From Escherichia phage vB_EcoM_VR20, in sequence record NC_028894.1: 64,000 bases of DNA, one strand, 5' to 3'. Shown in pieces: positions 25,367 through 40,132 of this stretch. The notes under the pieces were generated by a model. It saw nothing but the letters and a program-made list of their open reading frames with translations, ran no database searches and was not told the DNA's origin. A program made the translations under genes and the position numbers. Each line of letters starts with the position of its first letter. Within the stretch, counting starts at the first letter, position 1.

Positions 25367-25666
25367 TTAGAAAGAACCAGAGCCTTTAATTGTGTTCTGG
25401 CGACCTTTATTTTCTAATTCAGAATGGTCAATTTCATATGCTTGTGCTACGCCAAAGGCCTTTTTAACTTTAGCTAAAGAACCTTTAGATGTAACAATAT
25501 TAAAAGTATTACCTTTAGTAAAATCAACCAAATCCACTTGTACACCTTGTTTACCGAGGCTTGCGACAATAGCATCAACATATTGTTGGTCTAAATTGCC
25601 CTGGACTCCGATTTGAAATGCTTTAGGAGCTTTAGCTTCTGTGATAAATTCTTGATAAGTTTTCAT
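25367..25666 (-). CDS. Internal-protein-like ORF with capsid targeting sequence
   Basis: 99 aa; N-terminus MKTYQEFITE (CTS-like) with I-x-E site. Confidence 0.55.
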   Translation of the reverse strand: MKTYQEFITEAKAPKAFQIGVQGNLDQQYVDAIVASLGKQGVQVDLVDFTKGNTFNIVTSKGSLAKVKKAFGVAQAYEIDHSELENKGRQNTIKGSGSF

Positions 25667-25674
25667 TTATTCTC

Positions 25675-25725
25675 TCCAAGTTGATGGGATAATTATGCAC
25701 TATCCCATCAAAAAGTAAACAGTTA
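25675..25725 (-). promoter_or_regulatory. Class I early-promoter/leader cassette
   Basis: GTTTAC-17bp-TGCATAATTATCCCATCAACTTGGAGAGAA; inverted repeat GATGGGATA..TATCCCATC around -10. Confidence 0.5.
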
Positions 25726-25986
25726 TGCTTTACCGCCAGAAACAATACCAAAGGTCTCAAAGTCCCATTCAATATCGTCAACATCAACTTTCTTACCAGC
25801 AACCACGAATGCGATTTCGCGACGTTTTGCATAGGTGACAATTTCTTTACCATCACCGCCAAAGAAAGAATAACCATTGCGCTTCATGGTGCCAAAGTCT
25901 TCAGCATCACCAGCAAACGCGCGGACTTTAAAGGAACCAGCAGGAGCTTTAGCAGATTCAGTAATAAATTCTTGATAAGTTTTCAT
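25723..25986 (-). CDS. Internal-protein-like ORF with capsid targeting sequence
   Basis: 87 aa; N-terminus MKTYQEFITES. Confidence 0.55.
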   Translation of the reverse strand: MKTYQEFITESAKAPAGSFKVRAFAGDAEDFGTMKRNGYSFFGGDGKEIVTYAKRREIAFVVAGKKVDVDDIEWDFETFGIVSGGKA

Positions 25987-25999
25987 AATGTCTCTTTAA

Positions 26000-26314
26000 T
26001 TAAGCTTTAGGGAAATCGCGCAAAAACGCATCATAAAGTTTATTACCAATACGACGGAATGCTTTTGCTGCATGAACGTTATCCGGGTTTGCAATTTTAA
26101 TCTGCATTACATGACTACCCGCCCATGATTTAGCTTCGTCATAATAACCTTTAATTTCTTTAATAGTCTTGCGTTTGCCGCCAGGACCATCAACAGTAAT
26201 TTTCCACGAACCCGTGCTTGTTTCACTTGGTGGGGTTAATTGTTCAATCCAGACATAACCGCCTTCAACACGTTTTTGGGTGGATTCAGTAATAAATTCT
26301 TGATAAGTTTTCAT
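26000..26314 (-). CDS. Internal-protein-like ORF with capsid targeting sequence
   Basis: Start taken at internal Met giving MKTYQEFITEST...; 104 aa. Confidence 0.5.
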   Translation of the reverse strand: MKTYQEFITESTQKRVEGGYVWIEQLTPPSETSTGSWKITVDGPGGKRKTIKEIKGYYDEAKSWAGSHVMQIKIANPDNVHAAKAFRRIGNKLYDAFLRDFPKA

Positions 26315-26362
26315 TTTATATTCCATTGTTTGGTTGATAAAATCATTATACAACCTTTTTAG

Positions 26363-26779
26363 TTAAGCGTACACAGCTTTCCCATAGTATTTGTACCAGG
26401 TAGGCTTTTGAGAAATTTTCTCATTCAATCTGGCTTGACTGATTTCAATTGACCAGATTGATGGTTGATAATCATTCTTCCATTCATCAGGAATATCATT
26501 TAAATCTTGGGTAGAAATATCTTTTATGTTAAACCCTCGCTTTAAACATTCCGCAATAAGTTCTTGATGACGGTTTTTAAGGAACAAAAGTTTATCATAA
26601 AAGAAGGTGACATGACCAGTCCCTAAAAGAAAAGATGATGGGATTTTAAAGTCAGAAACCTTTTTACCATTTTGTACATGTTTGCGAACCGCACCAAACA
26701 CGCGAGGAAGCTCACGATATTCAGCCATAAGATGTTGGTCAGCAAGTTCAGATACCAGGGTTAAATTAATGCGAGTCAT
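26363..26779 (-). CDS. denV: Endonuclease V (pyrimidine-dimer DNA glycosylase) DenV
   Basis: 138 aa; [35 protein letters not shown]... nearly identical to T4 DenV. Confidence 0.9.
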
Positions 26780-26789
26780 GTTTGTTCCT

Positions 26790-26830
26790 CCAAGTAGTTG
26801 ATGGGATAATAATACATCAATACGAGGAGG
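26790..26830 (-). promoter_or_regulatory. Class I early-promoter/leader cassette
   Basis: TATTATTATCCCATCAACTACTTGGAGGAA upstream of denV. Confidence 0.45.
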
Positions 26831-26838
26831 TTGTAAAC

Positions 26839-27120
26839 TTATTTTGTGGAAGCAGCCGAGATATATTTTTCAAGACGCTGTTTCATCAGCGAGCCGTTCT
26901 TAGCGATTTCTTCCGGTTTATCGCACATACGCAATAGAGCTTCAAGCTTAGTGATATCAGATGTCCGCTCAAATTTGCGAGTATCTACCTTACTAGCAAG
27001 TTCGGAAATACGCGCTAACAGACTTTCGGCTTCTACCAAAGCTGTGCCCAGCTTAGTTGCAAATGTGTCAGTAGCTTCATTAAGAGTGGTCACGGTCAAA
27101 AATTCATTATAGGTTTTCAT
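26839..27120 (-). CDS. Internal-protein-like ORF with capsid targeting sequence
   Basis: 93 aa; N-terminus [15 protein letters not shown]. Confidence 0.5.
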
Positions 27121-32496: not shown

Positions 32497-32842
32497 TACG
32501 AACCTCCTTAATAAATTCTTCGGCACATTTAATTTTGTGCTCTTCTTGCAGGGAAACACATTTTTGTTCCCACTCTTTAACTCGTCCCCGATAACCTTTA
32601 TTCATATGATTTTGATGCCACACATTTATCAATACCATACACAGGACTGTAATAAAAGGAGCTGCAATTACTAGCGTCCAGGCGACTCCAACACTAATGA
32701 TATTCATATCCCCACAAAGCACCATCATTATAACCCCAACGATGCACATGGACAGAGCTCCAAATGGAGGCATAAGGTCTTTATCAATCTTGTCTGCGTA
32801 CACAAATTTTTCTGGTTTACTTGGCAGATATAACGTTCGCAT
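32483..32842 (-). CDS. Two-TM membrane protein, paralog of 32143..32496
   Basis: Start at internal Met MRTLYLPSK with AAAGGGG SD; C-terminus ...EEFIKEVRNGTA. Confidence 0.45.
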   Translation of the reverse strand: MRTLYLPSKPEKFVYADKIDKDLMPPFGALSMCIVGVIMMVLCGDMNIISVGVAWTLVIAAPFITVLCMVLINVWHQNHMNKGYRGRVKEWEQKCVSLQEEHKIKCAEEFIKEVRNGTA

Positions 32843-33371
32843 TTTGAACCCCTTTAGCATATTCACGACATTCAGCAATAAAACGATTAAGCTTTCGTTT
32901 TTGTTTATGACTTTCTAATGTGTACTCAGACGTCAAATCAAGAAGCTCAGCTTTATCATAATTTTTAATATCAGTATAAGCTGGCCGGCGGTCAACCATT
33001 CCAAATACATCACCATTTTCTAGCGCCACATAACATACTAAATGGTAATCATCATCTGCCATATTAAGAAGTATACAATCATCGCTCTCGTTTAAAGCAT
33101 ATACTGAATAACGTAGTCCAGCGAATTCCACTCGTTGAATACCCAGATTTACATCAATAATTTCCAAGGCATCTGCGAAAGAAAGGTCTTCAGCTAAAGC
33201 AAAAATAAAAGGCAATTTTGTAGTATCGCCACGGCTAGTTGTTCTTCTTAAGAAATCATTGGAATAACCCAAGTCACCGCGGATTCTATAAAGAACTGTA
33301 TTAGTTTCAGTAGCAAGGCCACTACCGCCAAACCAGTCTACATTTGATATAAGGTCAGTATATAAGCTCAT
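32817..33371 (-). CDS. Hypothetical acidic protein with C-terminal FIAECRE motif
   Basis: 184 aa from MSLYTDLIS (GGAGAGGAG SD); C-terminal ...KLNRFIAECREYAKG. Confidence 0.45.
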   Translation of the reverse strand: MSLYTDLISNVDWFGGSGLATETNTVLYRIRGDLGYSNDFLRRTTSRGDTTKLPFIFALAEDLSFADALEIIDVNLGIQRVEFAGLRYSVYALNESDDCILLNMADDDYHLVCYVALENGDVFGMVDRRPAYTDIKNYDKAELLDLTSEYTLESHKQKRKLNRFIAECREYAKGVQNANVISAK

Positions 33372-33414
33372 AATTTTCTCCTCTCCCAATTAGGGGGCTT
33401 TGCCCCCCTTTATC

Positions 33415-34008
33415 TTACTTAAGTGAATTGATGTATTCTTCAATGTCAGCGGATGTGGTATCCACACCAACCTGTGGACCTTTGAAGGTTTCAACACGCA
33501 TCAGAGTGTCTTCAATATCAATCTTAGTCAATGCAGCGATTTCAACAACATCATCTGCGGTTGCAATACCTAGGGCAGACACCTTACGGGTTTCGCGGAT
33601 GTATTCCAGTTTAACAGCTAGTTCCTGACGAGAGTCATCCAGCTCTTTAACTTTCAATTTAATTTCATTACGCATTTCAACATAATCATCTGCCTTCTTA
33701 CGAAGTTGTTTAGCAGTGCGACGATACAGGAGACCCAGTTTAGCATGGACCTGGACATCAGCACCATCAGCAATCAGTTTACGAATTTCACGCTCTTTTG
33801 AAGCGGCGAGCTGGTCTTTTTCATTCGCTAGCTCGCGGATGCGTTTTTCTTCATTAACAGACTTAACGTGGGCAGTCTGGAGCTCAGTAATCTTATCAAT
33901 CAGGGTAGAAGCAGCTTTAGTATACTGGTCTTCAATAGACAGGTTTTGCGCCATTGCAGTACCCAGTTTGGAGCGGATAAATTCAACAAGTTTCTTTAAA
34001 GTATTCAT
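33415..34008 (-). CDS. Coiled-coil protein (possibly PspA/IM30-like)
   Basis: 197 aa, largely predicted helical with heptad-like charged repeats; family assignment unverified. Confidence 0.4.
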
Positions 34009-35421: not shown

Positions 35422-35718
35422 TTAATTTTCAGAAGTTGGGAAATAAACTTCAAAGTCATACATGTTTACTACTGCAGTCGCGATTGCTTGGTACTGCATA
35501 CCCAAGAAAGTTTTCTTGTTCTTACGCCACAAGTTAACCATTTCTGTTTTGATGCATGCCAGGGAGTAGTTGGATGCAGGATACTGTTTGATGATTGCAA
35601 CAACTTCTTCAGAAGCAGTTTCGCACAATTCATTCAGTTGAGCTTCAATTTTAGCAGAAATGATTGCTTTGTTTTCTTCTTGAGCTTGGGTAGCGTGCCA
35701 TGCAGGTGCGTTGAACAT
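35422..35718 (-). CDS. Hypothetical protein
   Basis: 98 aa ORF, class II leader upstream. Confidence 0.45.
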   Translation of the reverse strand: MFNAPAWHATQAQEENKAIISAKIEAQLNELCETASEEVVAIIKQYPASNYSLACIKTEMVNLWRKNKKTFLGMQYQAIATAVVNMYDFEVYFPTSEN

Positions 35719-35719
35719 T

Positions 35720-35790
35720 TTATTCTCCAGTGTTTTATTTGTTAACTCAGTATGGGATAATTATACACTATCCCACCTGGAAGTAAAACA
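35720..35790 (-). promoter_or_regulatory. Hybrid class I/II promoter/leader cassette
   Basis: GTGTATAATTATCCCATACTGAGTTAACAAATAAAACACTGGAGAATAAA-ATG. Confidence 0.5.
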
Positions 35791-35800
35791 CTTTTCTCAA

Positions 35801-36226
35801 TTATTTTTGAGCTTTGCGGAAGTTGGATGCATATGACTGAACAACAGTCTTTTTGATATCATGGGTGGTAACCAGAACATCAATCAGAGCGCGACGAGCT
35901 GCATTATCATTCATATCAATTTCTGCAAATGCCTGGAAGCAAATGTCACGAGCATTACCAGATTTGGACTGGATTTTTTCTTCTTTAACTTCTTCAATTG
36001 GGAATTCAATCATTTCAGCTTGGATTAATTCAATGATAGATTCTTTTGACTGTTTGGTGTTTACCTTCAGTTCAGAATTAAGGGACTTGGCGATGGCAAC
36101 AATCTGGGTTGAAGTCAGATGAATAAGTGCATCTTCACGAATGCAGATTTCACATACTTCGTCAGCAACCATTTTGTTGGTGATGCGGGTAACAGAAAAT
36201 GCAGAGGTCAGGGTCAGAAAGTTCAT
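35801..36226 (-). CDS. Hypothetical protein, paralog of 34905..35348
   Basis: 141 aa from internal Met MNFLTL; C-terminus ...DNAARRALIDVLVTTHDIKKTVVQSYASNFRK. Confidence 0.5.
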   Translation of the reverse strand: MNFLTLTSAFSVTRITNKMVADEVCEICIREDALIHLTSTQIVAIAKSLNSELKVNTKQSKESIIELIQAEMIEFPIEEVKEEKIQSKSGNARDICFQAFAEIDMNDNAARRALIDVLVTTHDIKKTVVQSYASNFRKAQK

Positions 36227-36227
36227 T

Positions 36228-36320
36228 TTATTTCTCCAAAGTTTTGTTTGATTCAGTGTGTAACTCAGTATGGAATCATTATGCGCCGGGTCAATTCGGA
36301 TGTACACTACTTTTTGAAGA
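36228..36320 (-). promoter_or_regulatory. Class II promoter/leader cassette
   Basis: GTGTACA...GCATAATGATTCCATACTGAGTTACACACTGAATCAAACAAAACTTTGGAGAAATAAA-ATG. Confidence 0.5.
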
Positions 36321-36344
36321 AAATTTCAAATTTATTCGGGGTAT

Positions 36345-36365
36345 AAAAAAGCCCGCAATGCGGGC
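36345..36365 (-). terminator. Rho-independent terminator
   Basis: GCCCGCaatGCGGGC hairpin followed on minus strand by TTTTTT, 3 nt after stop of 36368..36922. Confidence 0.6.
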
Positions 36366-36367
36366 TG

Positions 36368-36922
36368 TTAGTTCTTATAAAAGCGGAACGGATTTATATG
36401 AAAGGCGAGCATAGCCTTAGGGATGGGTCGGGACAGAAGGCTCTTGAGCTTCCAGCCACAATAAACACGCAGATAAAAGGTGATTCCACCGACCTTAAGA
36501 TAAGGAACAGAAGCAAAAACACCCCAGGCGTTGTCCGTCCACATCCAGAGCCATCCATGATGAGCTTTATCCGGGGAACCAGATTCGACATCAGGATTAC
36601 CTTTATAATGGAATTCTGAATTGCAATCACGACCGAGCTTGTGGTAAGCAAAATTGTATGCTTTGTTTCGCCAGAGCCAGGCTACTCGTTGGAAGTAAAC
36701 ACCTAACGGCCATTTTCTGATTTTTTCCCAGCGTTTAACATGACCACGGTCACCATCAATTGGATTATCGTATGTCATCATCCAGTCAAATCCGAACGGA
36801 AGCTTACCAGTCTTTTTGTTATGGAACGGCACTACAAATGGTGCAAGGATAACAGCCAGAATCATTGAAATGAAATCCAGTGGCACTAACAGAATCCAGC
36901 TTAGATATTTTAAAAGTTTCAT
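36368..36922 (-). CDS. Membrane-anchored protein, apparently late-expressed
   Basis: 184 aa; N-terminal TM LSWILLVPLDFISMILAVILAPFVV then Trp-rich soluble domain; TATAAATA ~27 nt upstream. Confidence 0.5.
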   Translation of the reverse strand: MKLLKYLSWILLVPLDFISMILAVILAPFVVPFHNKKTGKLPFGFDWMMTYDNPIDGDRGHVKRWEKIRKWPLGVYFQRVAWLWRNKAYNFAYHKLGRDCNSEFHYKGNPDVESGSPDKAHHGWLWMWTDNAWGVFASVPYLKVGGITFYLRVYCGWKLKSLLSRPIPKAMLAFHINPFRFYKN

Positions 36923-36948
36923 AAATTTCCTTAGTTATGGGTACGTTA

Positions 36949-36956
36949 TATTTATA
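36949..36956 (-). promoter_or_regulatory. T4-type late promoter TATAAATA
   Basis: Exact TATAAATA on minus strand upstream of 36368..36922. Confidence 0.5.
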
Positions 36957-36984
36957 AAAAAGCCCCAACCTTTCGGAAGGGGCT
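36954..36984 (-). terminator. Terminator-like hairpin
   Basis: AGCCCC..GGGGCT imperfect hairpin followed on minus strand by TTTTTAT; downstream of 37033..37416. Confidence 0.4.
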
Positions 36985-37032
36985 AAGCCTTGCGGCAACC
37001 TTGTCGGGGTTCCACCTGCTAGGCAAGTGTTC

Positions 37033-37416
37033 TTATCCGCGTGCGAATGCCATTGCAGCGCGTTCGTTGGCACGGTCAGTGATGTTCAAGAATTTATCAC
37101 GAGCGATTTCGATTGGAGCACCAACCCAGTCAGCAGCACCATTACCTGGGGACTGTTTAGGACGAACCATATAAGTTGAAACTTTGGAACCAGCTAGTTT
37201 AGCACCAGGTGCAGCGGCATTCTTAACGTCTTTAGCTTTGATACCAAAACCAGTTACGATGCCCCAAGAAACACCATTAACTGGTTTCTTGAACATAACA
37301 CGGTCGCCAATTGAAACACCCGCTTTTTCTGGAGCTACTAAAGAAAATTTACCGGCTTCAGTCAGCACGGATTCGGTGATGGTATTGCGATTTAAAAATT
37401 CTGCATATGTAAGCAT
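37033..37416 (-). CDS. Hypothetical protein with CTS-like N-terminus
   Basis: 127 aa; MLTYAEFLNRNTITE resembles capsid targeting sequences. Confidence 0.45.
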   Translation of the reverse strand: MLTYAEFLNRNTITESVLTEAGKFSLVAPEKAGVSIGDRVMFKKPVNGVSWGIVTGFGIKAKDVKNAAAPGAKLAGSKVSTYMVRPKQSPGNGAADWVGAPIEIARDKFLNITDRANERAAMAFARG

Positions 37417-37653
37417 TTTGTTTTTCCATTATTAGGGTTGTTGTTAATATTTATATTCCATAGTACCGGATGCACCATCCGCTCGGATTTCTCATACTAC
37501 CGGGCGCACCGCCCGCTCTGGAAAAACTCCATAAAAAGGTGCGCCGTTTCTGCTGTGATATAAGGGGACATCAACAAATCGTAAAGATTTATTAATGTCA
37601 GTCCTTAAACAGGGAACATCAGTCCGACGACTTACCGGTAGCGACCCGGTTTC
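37417..37653 (-). other. GC-rich structured intergenic segment (candidate small stable RNA)
   Basis: Hairpins CGGGCGgtgCGCCCG, CGGATGgtgCATCCG, ACCGGgtcgctaCCGGT within 240 bp lacking an ORF, adjacent to the tRNA genes. Confidence 0.3.
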
Positions 37654-37893
37654 TCATTCAATTGTAATAGCTAATTTGACTTTAACAACCTTATAATTGG
37701 AATCAAGGTCATTGAATTCCATAAAATTTGTTGCTAATCTGCGAGTCGGGAAACTTAGATATTTATTATGAGCCGGAGGAGCGGTTAATGCAAACCATGG
37801 GACTTGTTTATCATTTGCATCGAACTCGTCAAAACTATAAACCAGCTCGTTGTTGGTTATATCCATAACCGCATAGGATTCGTTAATAACCAT
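37654..37893 (-). CDS. Hypothetical protein
   Basis: 79 aa ORF downstream of tRNA-Arg. Confidence 0.4.
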   Translation of the reverse strand: MVINESYAVMDITNNELVYSFDEFDANDKQVPWFALTAPPAHNKYLSFPTRRLATNFMEFNDLDSNYKVVKVKLAITIE

Positions 37894-37910
37894 ATAATAT
37901 CCTCAGTAAT

Positions 37911-37987
37911 TGGTCGGGGTGGTGGGATTCTAACCCACAACCTACGGTTTAGAAGACCGTTGCTCTATACAATTGAGCTACACCCCG
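37911..37987 (-). tRNA. tRNA-Arg (anticodon UCU), CCA encoded
   Basis: Manual cloverleaf: acceptor CGGGGTG/CACCCCG, D-stem GCTC/GAGC, anticodon stem ACGGT/ACCGT, loop CTTCTAA, T-arm GTGGG-TTAGAAT-CCCAC. Confidence 0.8.
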
Positions 37988-37989
37988 AG

Positions 37990-38062
37990 TGGCCCCATCC
38001 GGACTTGAACCGGAAACCTGCCAGTTATGAGCCGGATGCTCTAACCAATTGAGCTACAGGGC
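37990..38062 (-). tRNA. tRNA with CAU anticodon (Met or Ile)
   Basis: Manual cloverleaf: acceptor GGCCCTG/TGGGGCC, D-arm GCTC-AATTGGTTA-GAGC, loop CTCATAA, T-arm TCCGG-TTCAAGT-CCGGA; one mismatch in anticodon stem. Confidence 0.7.
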
Positions 38063-38068
38063 CTAAAA

Positions 38069-38341
38069 TTAAATTACAAATCCAGCGGGAGCATTATCAT
38101 CTTTTGCCATGTGCTGAATTGTATGATAAGTCATTTCTTCAGGAGCAACCAGATAAGCCGCAACGTTAACTAGTGGAATTATTTTTGGTTTAGCGAATGT
38201 GCTATCGGCAATTGCCATAAAGGACTCGCCGTCGGTCTCAACTTCGCCAAATTGACATTCATATGAAATAGAACAACGTTTGGTAGTTGTTGTCTTGGTT
38301 TCCGGGTCATAAAAAGCTAATTTTAATACTAACATAAACAC
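38069..38341 (-). CDS. Hypothetical protein
   Basis: 90 aa ORF immediately upstream of tRNAs. Confidence 0.4.
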   Translation of the reverse strand: MFMLVLKLAFYDPETKTTTTKRCSISYECQFGEVETDGESFMAIADSTFAKPKIIPLVNVAAYLVAPEEMTYHTIQHMAKDDNAPAGFVI

Positions 38342-38456
38342 CTCAAATAAAATTAAGTAAAGTAAGTTTGATTAATAGCACATGCTATTATGAAAGATTC
38401 TTTGAGGGAAGAACCTTTGGTAATAGAGGGTACTTATTAATAATAACGCGTTTTTG

Positions 38457-38939
38457 TTAAAGCATATCAAGCGCTTTAACAGATGGGATTCGGATTTCTT
38501 CTTCGATTATATATAGCTTAACATAAGAAATTACACGCATGAAATCGCCATCATATTCGCAAGCCATACCTAAAAGTTCAGTCAGAGCTTCATTCAGGTA
38601 GTATTCTTCATCATCGTCATTCAACAAGGCTTCCAAATCTGCAATACCAAGAACTTTATTCAAAAATTCATAAGTCAACTGCCCAGATTTTACACCAGAT
38701 GCAATGTGGGCGATAACCAAGTGTTTAACCACATCCCATTCTGAATTACCACATTTATTGCGGTTGTTACAATGCGAACCATGGAAAAGTTCCAGGATAT
38801 ATTTGTACTGTTGGATTTCTTGTTCTTCTACGCCAAATACCATTTGGGTTTTATAGTTGTCACCATCATTTTCCCAGGTTTCAATTTCAATCGCATAACC
38901 TTTAGGGATGGTCTGACCAAATTTGATATTCATTCGCAT
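38457..38939 (-). CDS. Hypothetical acidic protein
   Basis: 160 aa ORF. Confidence 0.45.
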   Translation of the reverse strand: MRMNIKFGQTIPKGYAIEIETWENDGDNYKTQMVFGVEEQEIQQYKYILELFHGSHCNNRNKCGNSEWDVVKHLVIAHIASGVKSGQLTYEFLNKVLGIADLEALLNDDDEEYYLNEALTELLGMACEYDGDFMRVISYVKLYIIEEEIRIPSVKALDML

Positions 38940-39319
38940 GTTCCTTCATCAACAATAGTATGCGTATTGGCATTAACAATCTGCCACCAGTCAAAACGGT
39001 TGGAACCATAACAAGGCTTTTTCTCGTTTTCTTTAATGATATCGCGCAGTTCATCTTCAGTCGCAGCTTTTGCAATTAAGTCAGCATAACCGCCACGAGG
39101 ATAATAACTATCACCAGCAAAGAGCAAAAAGTTTGTTTTGATATTCTTGAATTCTTCAAGAGTAATAACTGTTCCAGATGGTTGAACAATATCTACGTAA
39201 CTATATCCTAATTTCTGGGCATTATCTACCGCTTCAAGCAGGGTGTCATGTGCCCACCCAATTTGGCACTCTGGCTTTTCAGATGGATTGGCCTGATAAT
39301 CCGCATACACTTTATACAT
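38930..39319 (-). CDS. Hypothetical protein
   Basis: 129 aa from internal Met MYKVYADYQ with AAGGTGAG SD. Confidence 0.45.
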   Translation of the reverse strand: MYKVYADYQANPSEKPECQIGWAHDTLLEAVDNAQKLGYSYVDIVQPSGTVITLEEFKNIKTNFLLFAGDSYYPRGGYADLIAKAATEDELRDIIKENEKKPCYGSNRFDWWQIVNANTHTIVDEGTCE

Positions 39320-39320
39320 T

Positions 39321-39506
39321 TTACTCACCTTTAGACATTTTATCCATAACGAAAGAGATTGAACCAATTAAGAATGCAACTACTAAAGAGATTATATTCT
39401 CAGAAGTTGAAAGCATATTCAACATAAAGCCAGCGAACATGCTAAAACCAAAAGCGGTAACAGCAACAAAGGCAGTAACATTTCTAATTAATTCGCAACG
39501 TTTCAT
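39321..39506 (-). CDS. Small membrane protein
   Basis: 61 aa; two hydrophobic segments; class I promoter cassette upstream. Confidence 0.4.
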   Translation of the reverse strand: MKRCELIRNVTAFVAVTAFGFSMFAGFMLNMLSTSENIISLVVAFLIGSISFVMDKMSKGE

Positions 39507-39514
39507 TTTATTCT

Positions 39515-39570
39515 CCTCATTAGTTGATGGGATAATTATACACTATCCCATATCTAAAAGTACACTTATT
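39515..39570 (-). promoter_or_regulatory. Class I early-promoter/leader cassette
   Basis: GTGTAC-~18bp-TGTATAATTATCCCATCAACTAATGAGGAGAA; IR TGGGATAG..TATCCCA. Confidence 0.5.
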
Positions 39571-39799
39571 TTTTACGGAAAATTGATTTATACTGTTTAG
39601 CCCATTTCTCGATAACTTCTGCTGGACCCTGGATAACAAAATAGTCCCCAAACTCTTCACCGCCGAGCTGACCGTAATTATCTAAGGCGTCGCGGAGAGT
39701 TCCATAAGGCATTTCGCCCATTTTATCTTTCTTGCCGGTGTAAATGAATTGCACTTTAACATCAGCAGTTTCATTAATAAATTCTTGATAAGTTTTCAT
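39566..39799 (-). CDS. Internal-protein-like ORF with capsid targeting sequence
   Basis: 77 aa; MKTYQEFINETADV. Confidence 0.55.
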   Translation of the reverse strand: MKTYQEFINETADVKVQFIYTGKKDKMGEMPYGTLRDALDNYGQLGGEEFGDYFVIQGPAEVIEKWAKQYKSIFRKK

Positions 39800-39804
39800 G
39801 TTGT

Positions 39805-39860
39805 CTCCAGTAGTTGATGGGATAATTATACTGCAGTTATCCCATCACGTACACTAAATT
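39805..39860 (-). promoter_or_regulatory. Class I early-promoter/leader cassette
   Basis: GTGTAC...GATGGGATAACTGCAGTATAATTATCCCATCAACTACTGGAGACAAC-ATG. Confidence 0.5.
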
Positions 39861-40132
39861 TTTGTATATTGTCCAGCTTTAACTTTTTTCAGTTCACGAG
39901 GGCTTACCGCGTAAGTGAATGGAGCATTCCAGGAAGAACTGACTTTGTAACCTTTAGTCAACATCATTGCTGAAACTTTCTTGTTATCAGGACCGTTTTC
40001 GCCTTTAACAAGAAACAACTCAAATGCGCCACCATCAACCGGTTTGGCCTTAACCATCAGATGTCCTTTCAGGTCTTCCAGCATATCCGGGTGACTAATT
40101 GATTCGTTAATAAATTCTTGATAAGTTTTCAT
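39854..40132 (-). CDS. Internal-protein-like ORF with capsid targeting sequence
   Basis: 92 aa; MKTYQEFINESISHPDMLE. Confidence 0.55.
   Translation of the reverse strand: MKTYQEFINESISHPDMLEDLKGHLMVKAKPVDGGAFELFLVKGENGPDNKKVSAMMLTKGYKVSSSWNAPFTYAVSPRELKKVKAGQYTKI

Follow-up and report, generated by a model that had tools for sequence, protein, structure and literature searches.

Within the 64,000-nucleotide stretch of the Escherichia phage vB_EcoM_VR20 genome analysed here (NC_028894.1; this whole stretch is called the window below), which derives from a T4-type phage, a gap of 237 base pairs (bp) at 37417-37653 lies exactly between two minus-strand open reading frames (ORFs) of 127 and 79 amino acids (aa). 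The minus strand carries every gene around this gap and is the transcribed strand, and the closest records at the locus belong to the Gaprivervirus phages DK-13, MN01, vB_YenM_P8 and UPEC07, with 92-96% identity. We read the gap, with a probability of about 0.72, as the junction of two minus-strand units: an rnaD gene, corresponding to one of the small stable RNAs of T4, and the 5' leader of a late-gene cassette.

A first-pass annotation had described the gap as a segment rich in guanine plus cytosine (GC), dense in hairpins, free of ORFs and situated beside the tRNA genes. The three perfect GC hairpins that it listed are indeed present where it had placed them; on the plus strand they read CGGATG-CAC-CATCCG at 37467-37481, CGGGCG-CAC-CGCCCG at 37501-37515 and ACCGG-TAGCGAC-CCGGT at 37634-37650, and the GTG loops originally given for two of them correspond to the minus-strand reading. 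The lack of a credible ORF likewise holds, the gap being crossed only by plus-strand ORFs of 33-41 aa. The term GC-rich fits the stems and not the segment overall, which has 41-44% GC vs ~38% in its flanks, and the tRNA genes (37911-38063, minus strand) are 258 bp away, with the 79-aa ORF in between. The density of GC hairpins at the gap is above chance: when perfect hairpins of at least 5 bp with at least four G-C pairs are counted in 237-bp segments across the 64 kb, the three distinct hairpins of the gap are the maximum (mean 0.26 per segment), a count reached by 0.4% of segments. The sole other spot with this count, at 33392-33409 (~33.4 kb), was rejected as a second hairpin-dense site, as it consists of one terminator hairpin counted four ways. 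This perfect hairpin, AGGGGGC-TTT-GCCCCCT, lies between the convergently spaced minus-strand ORFs 32817-33389 and 33415-34008 and is likely an intercistronic terminator or stabiliser.

The rnaD gene and its fold

The sequence from 37657 to 37538, whose first bases AUGAGAAAC contain the TGA stop of the 79-aa ORF, aligns over its full length with positions 1-119 of T4 rnaD (NC_000866 71053-71171, annotated there as 'small, stable RNA; species 2 RNA' and also called band D), with 108 of 122 positions identical (89%; E 2e-39). It has in common with the T4 RNA the 5' start AUGAGAAACC, the 3' end GGCGCACC and the predicted helices P0, P1, P2 and P3, and by homology it is the ortholog of T4 rnaD. A covariance model (R1), built from an alignment of 30 homologs with the window sequence among them, scores it at 135.6 bits (E 5e-29) and places it in the 64 kb as a single copy; a second rnaD-like match at 572-595 is weak, falls within a coding ORF and was set aside as chance. 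The 30 distinct homologs come from T4, Gaprivervirus, Dhakavirus, Karamvirus and Jiaodavirus, from phages of the W70/A73 type (two Vequintavirinae-type phages), and from IMG/VR and metagenomes. BLAST returned homologs in ~730 phage records with the window sequence as query and in 809 with a divergent query. These homologs are largely unannotated, several records labelling rnaD, and in the ~730 records the homology stops sharply at 37538 (...GGCGCACC).

The earlier suggestion that the gap might hold a counterpart of one of the small stable RNAs known from T4 is thereby borne out for its upstream half and not for the CGGGCG and CGGATG hairpins, which lie outside rnaD; ACCGG-N7-CCGGT is the only one of the three noted hairpins that belongs to the RNA. 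The accompanying proposal of a processing site for adjacent tRNAs found no support, with an ORF separating the tRNAs from the segment. Rfam, which had been put forward as a check, gave no match to the segment. At E values up to 10 over 36300-38800 the scan returned tRNAs only and left 37417-37657 unmatched, and at gathering thresholds over the window and the T4 region it again returned tRNAs only, leaving T4 rnaC and rnaD themselves unmatched, because Rfam 15 holds no rnaC or rnaD family.

Within the locus, rnaD sits distal to tRNA-Met and tRNA-Arg, on the same strand and on the same tRNA-Arg side as in T4. The 79-aa ORF between tRNA-Arg and rnaD is an indel, present in the window, MN01, SP18 and RZ and absent from T4, JS10, TH40 and the contig L059, where rnaD directly follows tRNA-Arg. 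Inside the 3' end of this ORF lies a sigma-70-like site, TTGTTA-16-TACAAT (37661-37688, minus strand), which matches 9 of 12 consensus positions and would put a transcription start at approximately the first bases of rnaD; the surrounding region has no excess of such sites. It could represent an independent rnaD promoter where an ORF separates rnaD from the tRNAs.

The predicted fold of the window rnaD has a minimum free energy (MFE) of -38.5 kcal/mol (z -3.58) with all helices formed, and comprises the 5' hairpin P0, the closing helix P1, P2, a CCC bulge, P3 and an apical hairpin. By inspection, P0 is kept with its sequence replaced, as UCGGG-UAGCU-CCCGA in phage W70 and as UCAGAA-GACG-UUCUGA in Karamvirus and Jiaodavirus; two of its five pairs show two-sided changes, and the AA linker that follows it is invariant. 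P1 (GUCGUCG / CGGCG-C) hardly varies, P2 covaries (UGUU/AGCA, AGUU/AGCU, UUUAAU/AUUAAA), an invariant UCCCUG supplies the CCC bulge, and P3 covaries. For the apical hairpin, no fewer than five unrelated versions are seen, and the window's own genus accounts for three of these; that of the window differs in sequence from its T4 counterpart, with compensating changes. Conservation of the core reaches Karamvirus, Jiaodavirus and two Vequintavirinae phages, whose apical domain is wholly different.

The secondary structure of rnaD is kept by compensatory change. An RNAalifold consensus covering P1, P2 and P3 carries compensatory changes in 8 of 16 pairs. In a 21-pair model that includes P0, compared with controls in which the partner was slid by 1-3 columns, 95.9% of cells are paired (32-49% in the slid controls), two-sided changes affect 10 pairs (1-4) and 53 cells (1-10), and the covariation score is 0.261 (at most 0.037). 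No column shuffle out of 500 reaches the observed pairing, two-sided changes or covariation score; 32 of the 500 reach the number of further pair types.

The family extends beyond the T4-type phages. In the Escherichia phage W70, a non-Straboviridae phage of the Vequintavirinae (L017 692-794; also A73), an rnaD homolog lies directly after tRNA(CAT), with an identical core, a P0 rebuilt with compensatory changes and an apical domain of the Karamvirus/Jiaodavirus type, a combination suggesting that the RNA has moved horizontally across phage families. A search of metagenomes and 185,579 species genomes with the rnaD core pattern gave true matches in low-GC phage contigs only; four species-genome matches in GC-rich contigs were dismissed as chance, leaving no bacterial homolog, and the 244-bp region had no match in E. 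coli complete genomes. The record of phage HP3 (NC_041919) bears the taxonomy line 'Rosemountvirus' although its 168-kb genome has a T4-type tRNA/rnaD/rnaC locus, and this line is probably a record taxonomy error.

The cassette in the rnaC slot

The remainder of the gap, 37537-37417, is the 5' leader of a cassette (Table 1) that occupies the same slot as rnaC (species 1 RNA) does in T4, between the rnaD 3' end and the element starting ACACTTGCC. By comparison with T4, RZ, SP18 and JS10, the cassette boundaries fall between ...GGCGCACC and GAACACTTGCC..., and T4 homology resumes at 37031 (ACACTTGCC...), in the element that comes after rnaC in T4. Three states of the slot are found. It holds rnaC, 147 bp long and near-identical, in T4, HP3, SP18 and RZ, of which SP18 and RZ belong to the window's genus; it holds nothing in JS10-type phages, where the flanks are directly joined; and it holds the 505-bp cassette in the window, in 13 other phage records and in the contigs L049, L059 and L060, among which three different apical types of rnaD are seen next to the cassette. 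The 64-kb window has no rnaC anywhere, and the cassette, unlike rnaC protein-coding, has no sequence similarity to it. Because JS10-type phages also lack rnaC, being followed by rnaC is not a defining feature of rnaD.

Table 1. Positions of the features at the vB_EcoM_VR20 locus, in order of transcription
Feature	Position	Strand	Remark
tRNA-Met(CAT)	38063-37989	-	upstream gene, same transcription direction
tRNA-Arg(TCT)	37987-37911	-	upstream gene, same transcription direction
79-aa ORF, phrog_33509 (function unknown)	37654-37893	-	between tRNA-Arg and rnaD
rnaD ortholog (T4 species 2 RNA), ~120 nucleotides (nt)	37538-37657	-	T4 homology, covariance model, covariation
P0, rnaD 5' hairpin, ACCGG-GUCGCUA-CCGGU	37634-37650	-	third hairpin of the first-pass annotation
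505-bp cassette in the rnaC slot	37033-37537	-	spacer, two hairpin units, late promoter, 127-aa ORF
5' arm GUUUUUCCA of a possible long-range helix	37519-37527	-	perfect 9-nt complement of 37420-37428
Hairpin unit 1, with stem-loop H1 (37501-37515), CGGGCG-GUG-CGCCCG	37493-37518	-	direct repeat D1
Hairpin unit 2, with stem-loop H2 (37467-37481), CGGAUG-GUG-CAUCCG	37459-37484	-	direct repeat D1
T4-type late promoter motif TATAAATA	37448-37455	-	32 nt upstream of the 127-aa ORF ATG
3' arm UGGAAAAAC of the possible helix	37420-37428	-	-12 to -4 of the ATG, over a weak Shine-Dalgarno sequence
127-aa ORFan with internal-protein-like N-terminus (MLTYAEFLNRNTITE)	37033-37416	-	synonymous-only codon differences
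Conserved GC-rich element with hairpin/U-run, probable terminator	36957-37031	-	92% identical to T4 over 76 nt
DUF7338 gene	36922-36368	-	after the conserved GC-rich element

The cassette has a GC content of 45-50%, above that of the genome, and its spacer is U-rich and contains GGAG. The late promoter motif TATAAATA, which follows the published consensus (PMC3014915), is invariant in all five aligned relatives. Five copies of the 127-aa ORF differ from one another at 6-23 synonymous codons and at no nonsynonymous one, and these exclusively synonymous differences mark it as a real gene that is under strong purifying selection. It has no match in Pfam or PHROGs, a search of 5.8 billion proteins returned near-identical copies only (one cluster at 98% identity), and the single-sequence AlphaFold model, with a predicted local distance difference test (pLDDT) score of 36, is unusable.

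The N-terminal leader of the 127-aa protein, the late promoter motif and an I-x-E site in the ORF together recall the T4 internal proteins IPI, IPII and IPIII; the I-x-E sequence is of the kind cut by the prohead protease. T4 IPI starts MKTFKEF, and six further ORFs of the window start MKTYQEFI(T/N)E, the 127-aa leader MLTYAEFLNRNTITE resembling the more general MKTY(Q/N)EF(I/L)... form of these starts. It is, however, diverged (L2, A5, no E at position 10), and the ORF matches no family. The six ORFs (77-104 aa, minus strand) with an internal-protein-type leader lie in clusters at 39566-40132 and 25367-27120, so that, the 127-aa ORF aside, polymorphic internal-protein loci would appear to number at least two in this phage. 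Internal-protein genes are among those that differ between T4-type phages (PMC4122927).

Past the cassette, the conserved element at 36957-37031 consists of a hairpin, CACUUGC-CUA-GCAGGUG, a GCAA-looped stem and then AGCCCC...GGGGCUUUUUU. The same element follows rnaC at the T4 locus (L001 2831-2906), and all three states of the slot retain it. It probably serves as terminator and forms the 3' end of the tRNA/stable-RNA unit. The TATAAATA motif of the next gene (36949-36956) overlaps its U-run.

Tandem hairpin units and readings of the leader

H1 and H2 belong to tandem 34-nt units, each of the form GAG-CGGNNG-GUG-CNNCCG-GUA(G/C)UAUG, within which the direct repeat D1 spans 26 nt at 81% identity and 34-nt spacing. 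The two units differ by compensating stem changes (GCG/CGC vs AUG/CAU), and a 21-nt pattern of the unit is found twice here and in 0 of 100 shuffles. The units are confined to one locus in 14 phage records, always together with the 127-aa gene replacing rnaC; an IMG/VR scan for the unit pattern gave eight matches, all discarded as chance in GC-rich coding DNA. In TH44 and L059 the H1 stem carries a G-C to A-U double change, and in TH40, TH44 and L059 an A-to-G change in H2 is accommodated as a G.U pair, which can form in minus-strand RNA only. Because of these two changes, both stems would seem to be under selection, most simply in RNA, and we consider it likely that the hairpins act as RNA-level cis elements.

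The flanks of the units offer a further link to rnaD. The composite ATGAGAAA-N(2-20)-CCGGTA is found twice in the 64 kb, in unit 2 and in the rnaD 5' module, at the annotated start of the T4 RNA, and never in 100 shuffles; the flanks common to both read AUGAGAAA...CCGGUA in RNA form, and unit 1 is preceded by a related AUGGAG. Because the composite is restricted to these two places, it suggests that the units reuse the rnaD 5'-end signal or derive from a partial duplication of the rnaD 5' module. With the tRNA-rnaD unit upstream and no terminator between, we infer that early/middle transcription reads into the 127-aa gene. Our best guess, which we hold tentatively, is that the hairpins punctuate this transcript and have a processing or stability role. 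The units would then sit in transcripts reading through from rnaD and, because they share the AUGAGAAA...CCGGUA flanks with the rnaD 5' module, would probably mark sites of RNase cleavage or 3'-exonuclease stops that separate the stable RNA from the downstream message, with the late promoter below the units giving a translated late mRNA.

The leader could alternatively be a temporal translation switch, which we regard as unlikely. In read-through RNA, GUUUUUCCA would pair with UGGAAAAAC and hide the Shine-Dalgarno sequence of the 127-aa gene, with H1 and H2 as clamps in the loop, and late transcripts, starting below TATAAATA and so lacking the 5' arm, would be translated. Sequestration of the initiation region is documented for the T4 late genes e, soc, 49 and I-TevI (PMC3014915), and, as would be required for the switch, TATAAATA (37455-37448) lies here between the 5' arm and the 3' arm covering the Shine-Dalgarno sequence. 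The perfect 9-bp complement falls exactly on -12 to -4; between a 23-nt initiation region and its upstream 126 nt, complements of at least 9 nt are met at 0.75% of random window positions. MFE and centroid prediction alike place the helix in the leader of the window and of TH44, and complementing the 5' arm in silico raises accessibility, taken as the mean unpaired probability over -13 to +3, from 0.35 to 0.63. The leader-only values, 0.35 in the window and 0.33 in TH44, are not matched in TH40, MN01 and L049 (0.56-0.64), two of which have the helix weakened by a one-A deletion, and accessibility is thus lowered in only two of five relatives. With rnaD attached it becomes 0.61, the same as that of the late mRNA (0.58), and the effect is lost. 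The arms are either invariant or merely weakened. Compared with the T4 examples, moreover, the helix is long-range (~90 nt), encloses two hairpins, is A/U-rich, leaves the AUG uncovered and is not robustly predicted. Attractive as it is at the MFE, a Shine-Dalgarno switch was consequently rejected as the principal explanation, being robust neither in the ensemble nor across relatives.

It also seems improbable that the whole 237 bp forms one novel structured RNA, or an rnaD with a lineage-specific 3' extension in which the hairpins substitute for rnaC. The hairpins do make up the first 80 nt of the slot held by rnaC elsewhere, and their units share flanks with the rnaD 5' module. A 241-nt stretch folds better than shuffled sequence (z -3.0), but this value comes mostly from rnaD (z -3.6), the hairpin segment having a z of only -1.3. 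When the 241-nt transcript is folded, the MFE and centroid structures both pair the rnaD 3' end GGCGCACC (37538-37545) with its exact complement GGUGCGCC in H1 (37505-37512; 7 of 8 positions in H2), and this predicted pairing, which replaces both P1 and H1, could be an alternative conformation or a coincidence. Set against a single RNA are the end of rnaD homology at 37538 in ~730 records, the way the hairpins travel with the 127-aa gene, the joining of the cassette to three rnaD apical types and the lack of similarity to rnaC.

Stem-loops at an insertion edge in a hyperplastic region might instead function at the DNA level, by forming a cruciform or by being recognised by the homing or recombination enzyme that moved the cassette, or might be inert intergenic remnants of the donor; we give these possibilities little credence. 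Their restriction to one locus and the GC content of the cassette would agree with such an origin, and conserved stem-loop motifs, the PeSLs, are known to flank indels in T4-type genomes (PMC4122927). The A-to-G change in H2, however, would produce mismatches in a DNA cruciform, and the compensatory double change in H1 argues against an inert remnant. Among the ORFs at 35500-39500, most of them unchecked against protein families, no homing endonuclease was noticed. The hairpin units resemble PeSL cassettes (Arbiol 2010; Comeau 2014) in lying at the edge of an ORFan-bearing indel, but the promoter here is late and not early, there is no sigma-70-type promoter beside H1 or H2, the sequence bears no likeness to the PeSL consensus quoted for the T4/PST pair, and the element is found at a single locus and not as a dispersed family. 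The hairpin units are not PeSLs. The hairpin half of the gap resembles known T4 leader devices at most and is a member of no described family.

Elsewhere in the window, three minus-strand internal-protein-like ORFs, with starts at 40132, 39799 and 25666, are preceded at a distance of ~40-70 nt by a repeated hairpin, GATGGGATAA-N-TATAAT-TATCCCATC, which has a -10-like hexamer in or near the loop and GTGTAC or GTTTAC before it. This repeat looks like the PeSL motif of T4-type hyperplastic regions and may be a true PeSL.

Two stable GC stems between an early/middle unit and a late gene could finally be transcription terminators, stopping the tRNA-rnaD transcript short of that gene, and the window has a U-run after rnaD (GGCGCACC-UUUUUAU). 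Yet no U-tract follows H1 or H2, a terminator scan over 36800-38400 found no minus-strand terminator-like site, relatives have a shorter or altered U-run in this place after rnaD, and the canonical terminator of the unit is kept further downstream (~36957-36990), all of which makes this function very unlikely.

Processing, possible role and significance

rnaC and rnaD have been known since the 1970s and reach high abundance late in infection, and in T4 they arise from a dimeric precursor, with an RNase P cut at the 5' end of species 1. Their roles were given as unknown in 2010 (PMC3014915). In T4 they have since been described as late-accumulating RNAs, confirmed by northern blot and also by RNA-seq (PMC9697503, 2022), and a convergent single-nucleotide polymorphism (SNP) in rnaD was reported to have arisen as a T4-like phage adapted to a semi-permissive E. 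coli host (PMC12685909, 2025). By analogy with T4, the window rnaD would be made within the tRNA-cluster transcript and then cut out by host RNases. It would most likely act as a protein- or enzyme-binding RNA, in which the invariant P1/CCC core may be the recognised part and the swappable apical hairpin may tune specificity.

Several points weigh against an rnaD gene joined to a late-gene leader as set out above. The T4 route through a dimeric precursor cannot apply unchanged, as rnaD is here preceded by a protein gene, the 79-aa ORF, and rnaC is missing after it (as it is in JS10-type phages), so that the ends would not be made exactly as in T4; the ends of the rnaD transcript in this phage are inferred from T4. 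The function suggested for rnaD is a conjecture, and neither Rfam families nor E. coli genome sequences showed similarity to this RNA. On the side of the leader, the evidence for selection on the stems consists of a single compensatory pair and a single wobble change, seen in sequences that are close relatives of one another, and the hairpin segment alone folds no better than shuffled sequence. H1 and H2, followed by GUAGUAUGAG and GUACUAUGGA respectively, are not classical terminators, and the AUGAGAAA before H2 becomes ACGAGAAA in TH44 and L059.

A bolder proposal, to which we assign a low probability, is that rnaD is a 'scaffold plus cartridge' RNA that counters defence as a decoy or inhibitor in the course of an arms race, and that the neighbouring slot is an exchangeable counter-defence slot, which would carry rnaC in certain phages and, in the lineage of the window, an internal-protein-like ORFan that is injected. 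The proposal draws on patterns of distribution: the invariant core AAGUCGUCGG ... UCCCUG ... ACGGCG is common to Tevenvirinae genera and two Vequintavirinae phages, and the apical cartridges are swapped wholesale among close relatives, three of them being joined to the same downstream cassette. We raise it because this swap pattern and the reported convergent SNP (PMC12685909) would fit. Three motif-based ideas about rnaD were dropped: a hammerhead-like CUGAUG...GAAAC has no Rfam match and is absent in Karamvirus, a kink-turn in the P1/P2 internal loop would have extra unpaired bases and is unconserved in Karamvirus, and the likeness of AAGUCGU to the 16S decoding site is a 7-mer shared with a 1.5-kb RNA, as expected by chance.

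By homology, then, the rnaD half of the gap is a member of a known, functionally uncharacterised RNA family, and the locus leaves the role of rnaC and rnaD unsolved. It does provide new handles on the problem, in a covariation-supported fold for an RNA of which Rfam has no model, and in an invariant core distinct from a swappable apical domain, with homologs beyond the Tevenvirinae. Within one genus, natural isogenic-like variants with rnaC, nothing or a late cassette in the slot offer test material for both RNAs. The tandem hairpins would be a small, lineage-restricted regulatory curiosity, and for genome annotation a seemingly 'empty' spacer becomes an RNA gene and a late-gene leader.

A second conserved, unannotated spacer of ~130-170 nt lies inside the tRNA cluster of Karamvirus/Jiaodavirus, between tRNA-Asp and tRNA-Met (L055 790-925, L057 783-915 and L058 776-948). 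It is not matched by the rnaD covariance model. The spacer holds GUUCCCACAG...CUGUGUUCU, a sequence similar to the type-B apical domain that rnaD has in HP3 and TH44, and it may represent another stable RNA.

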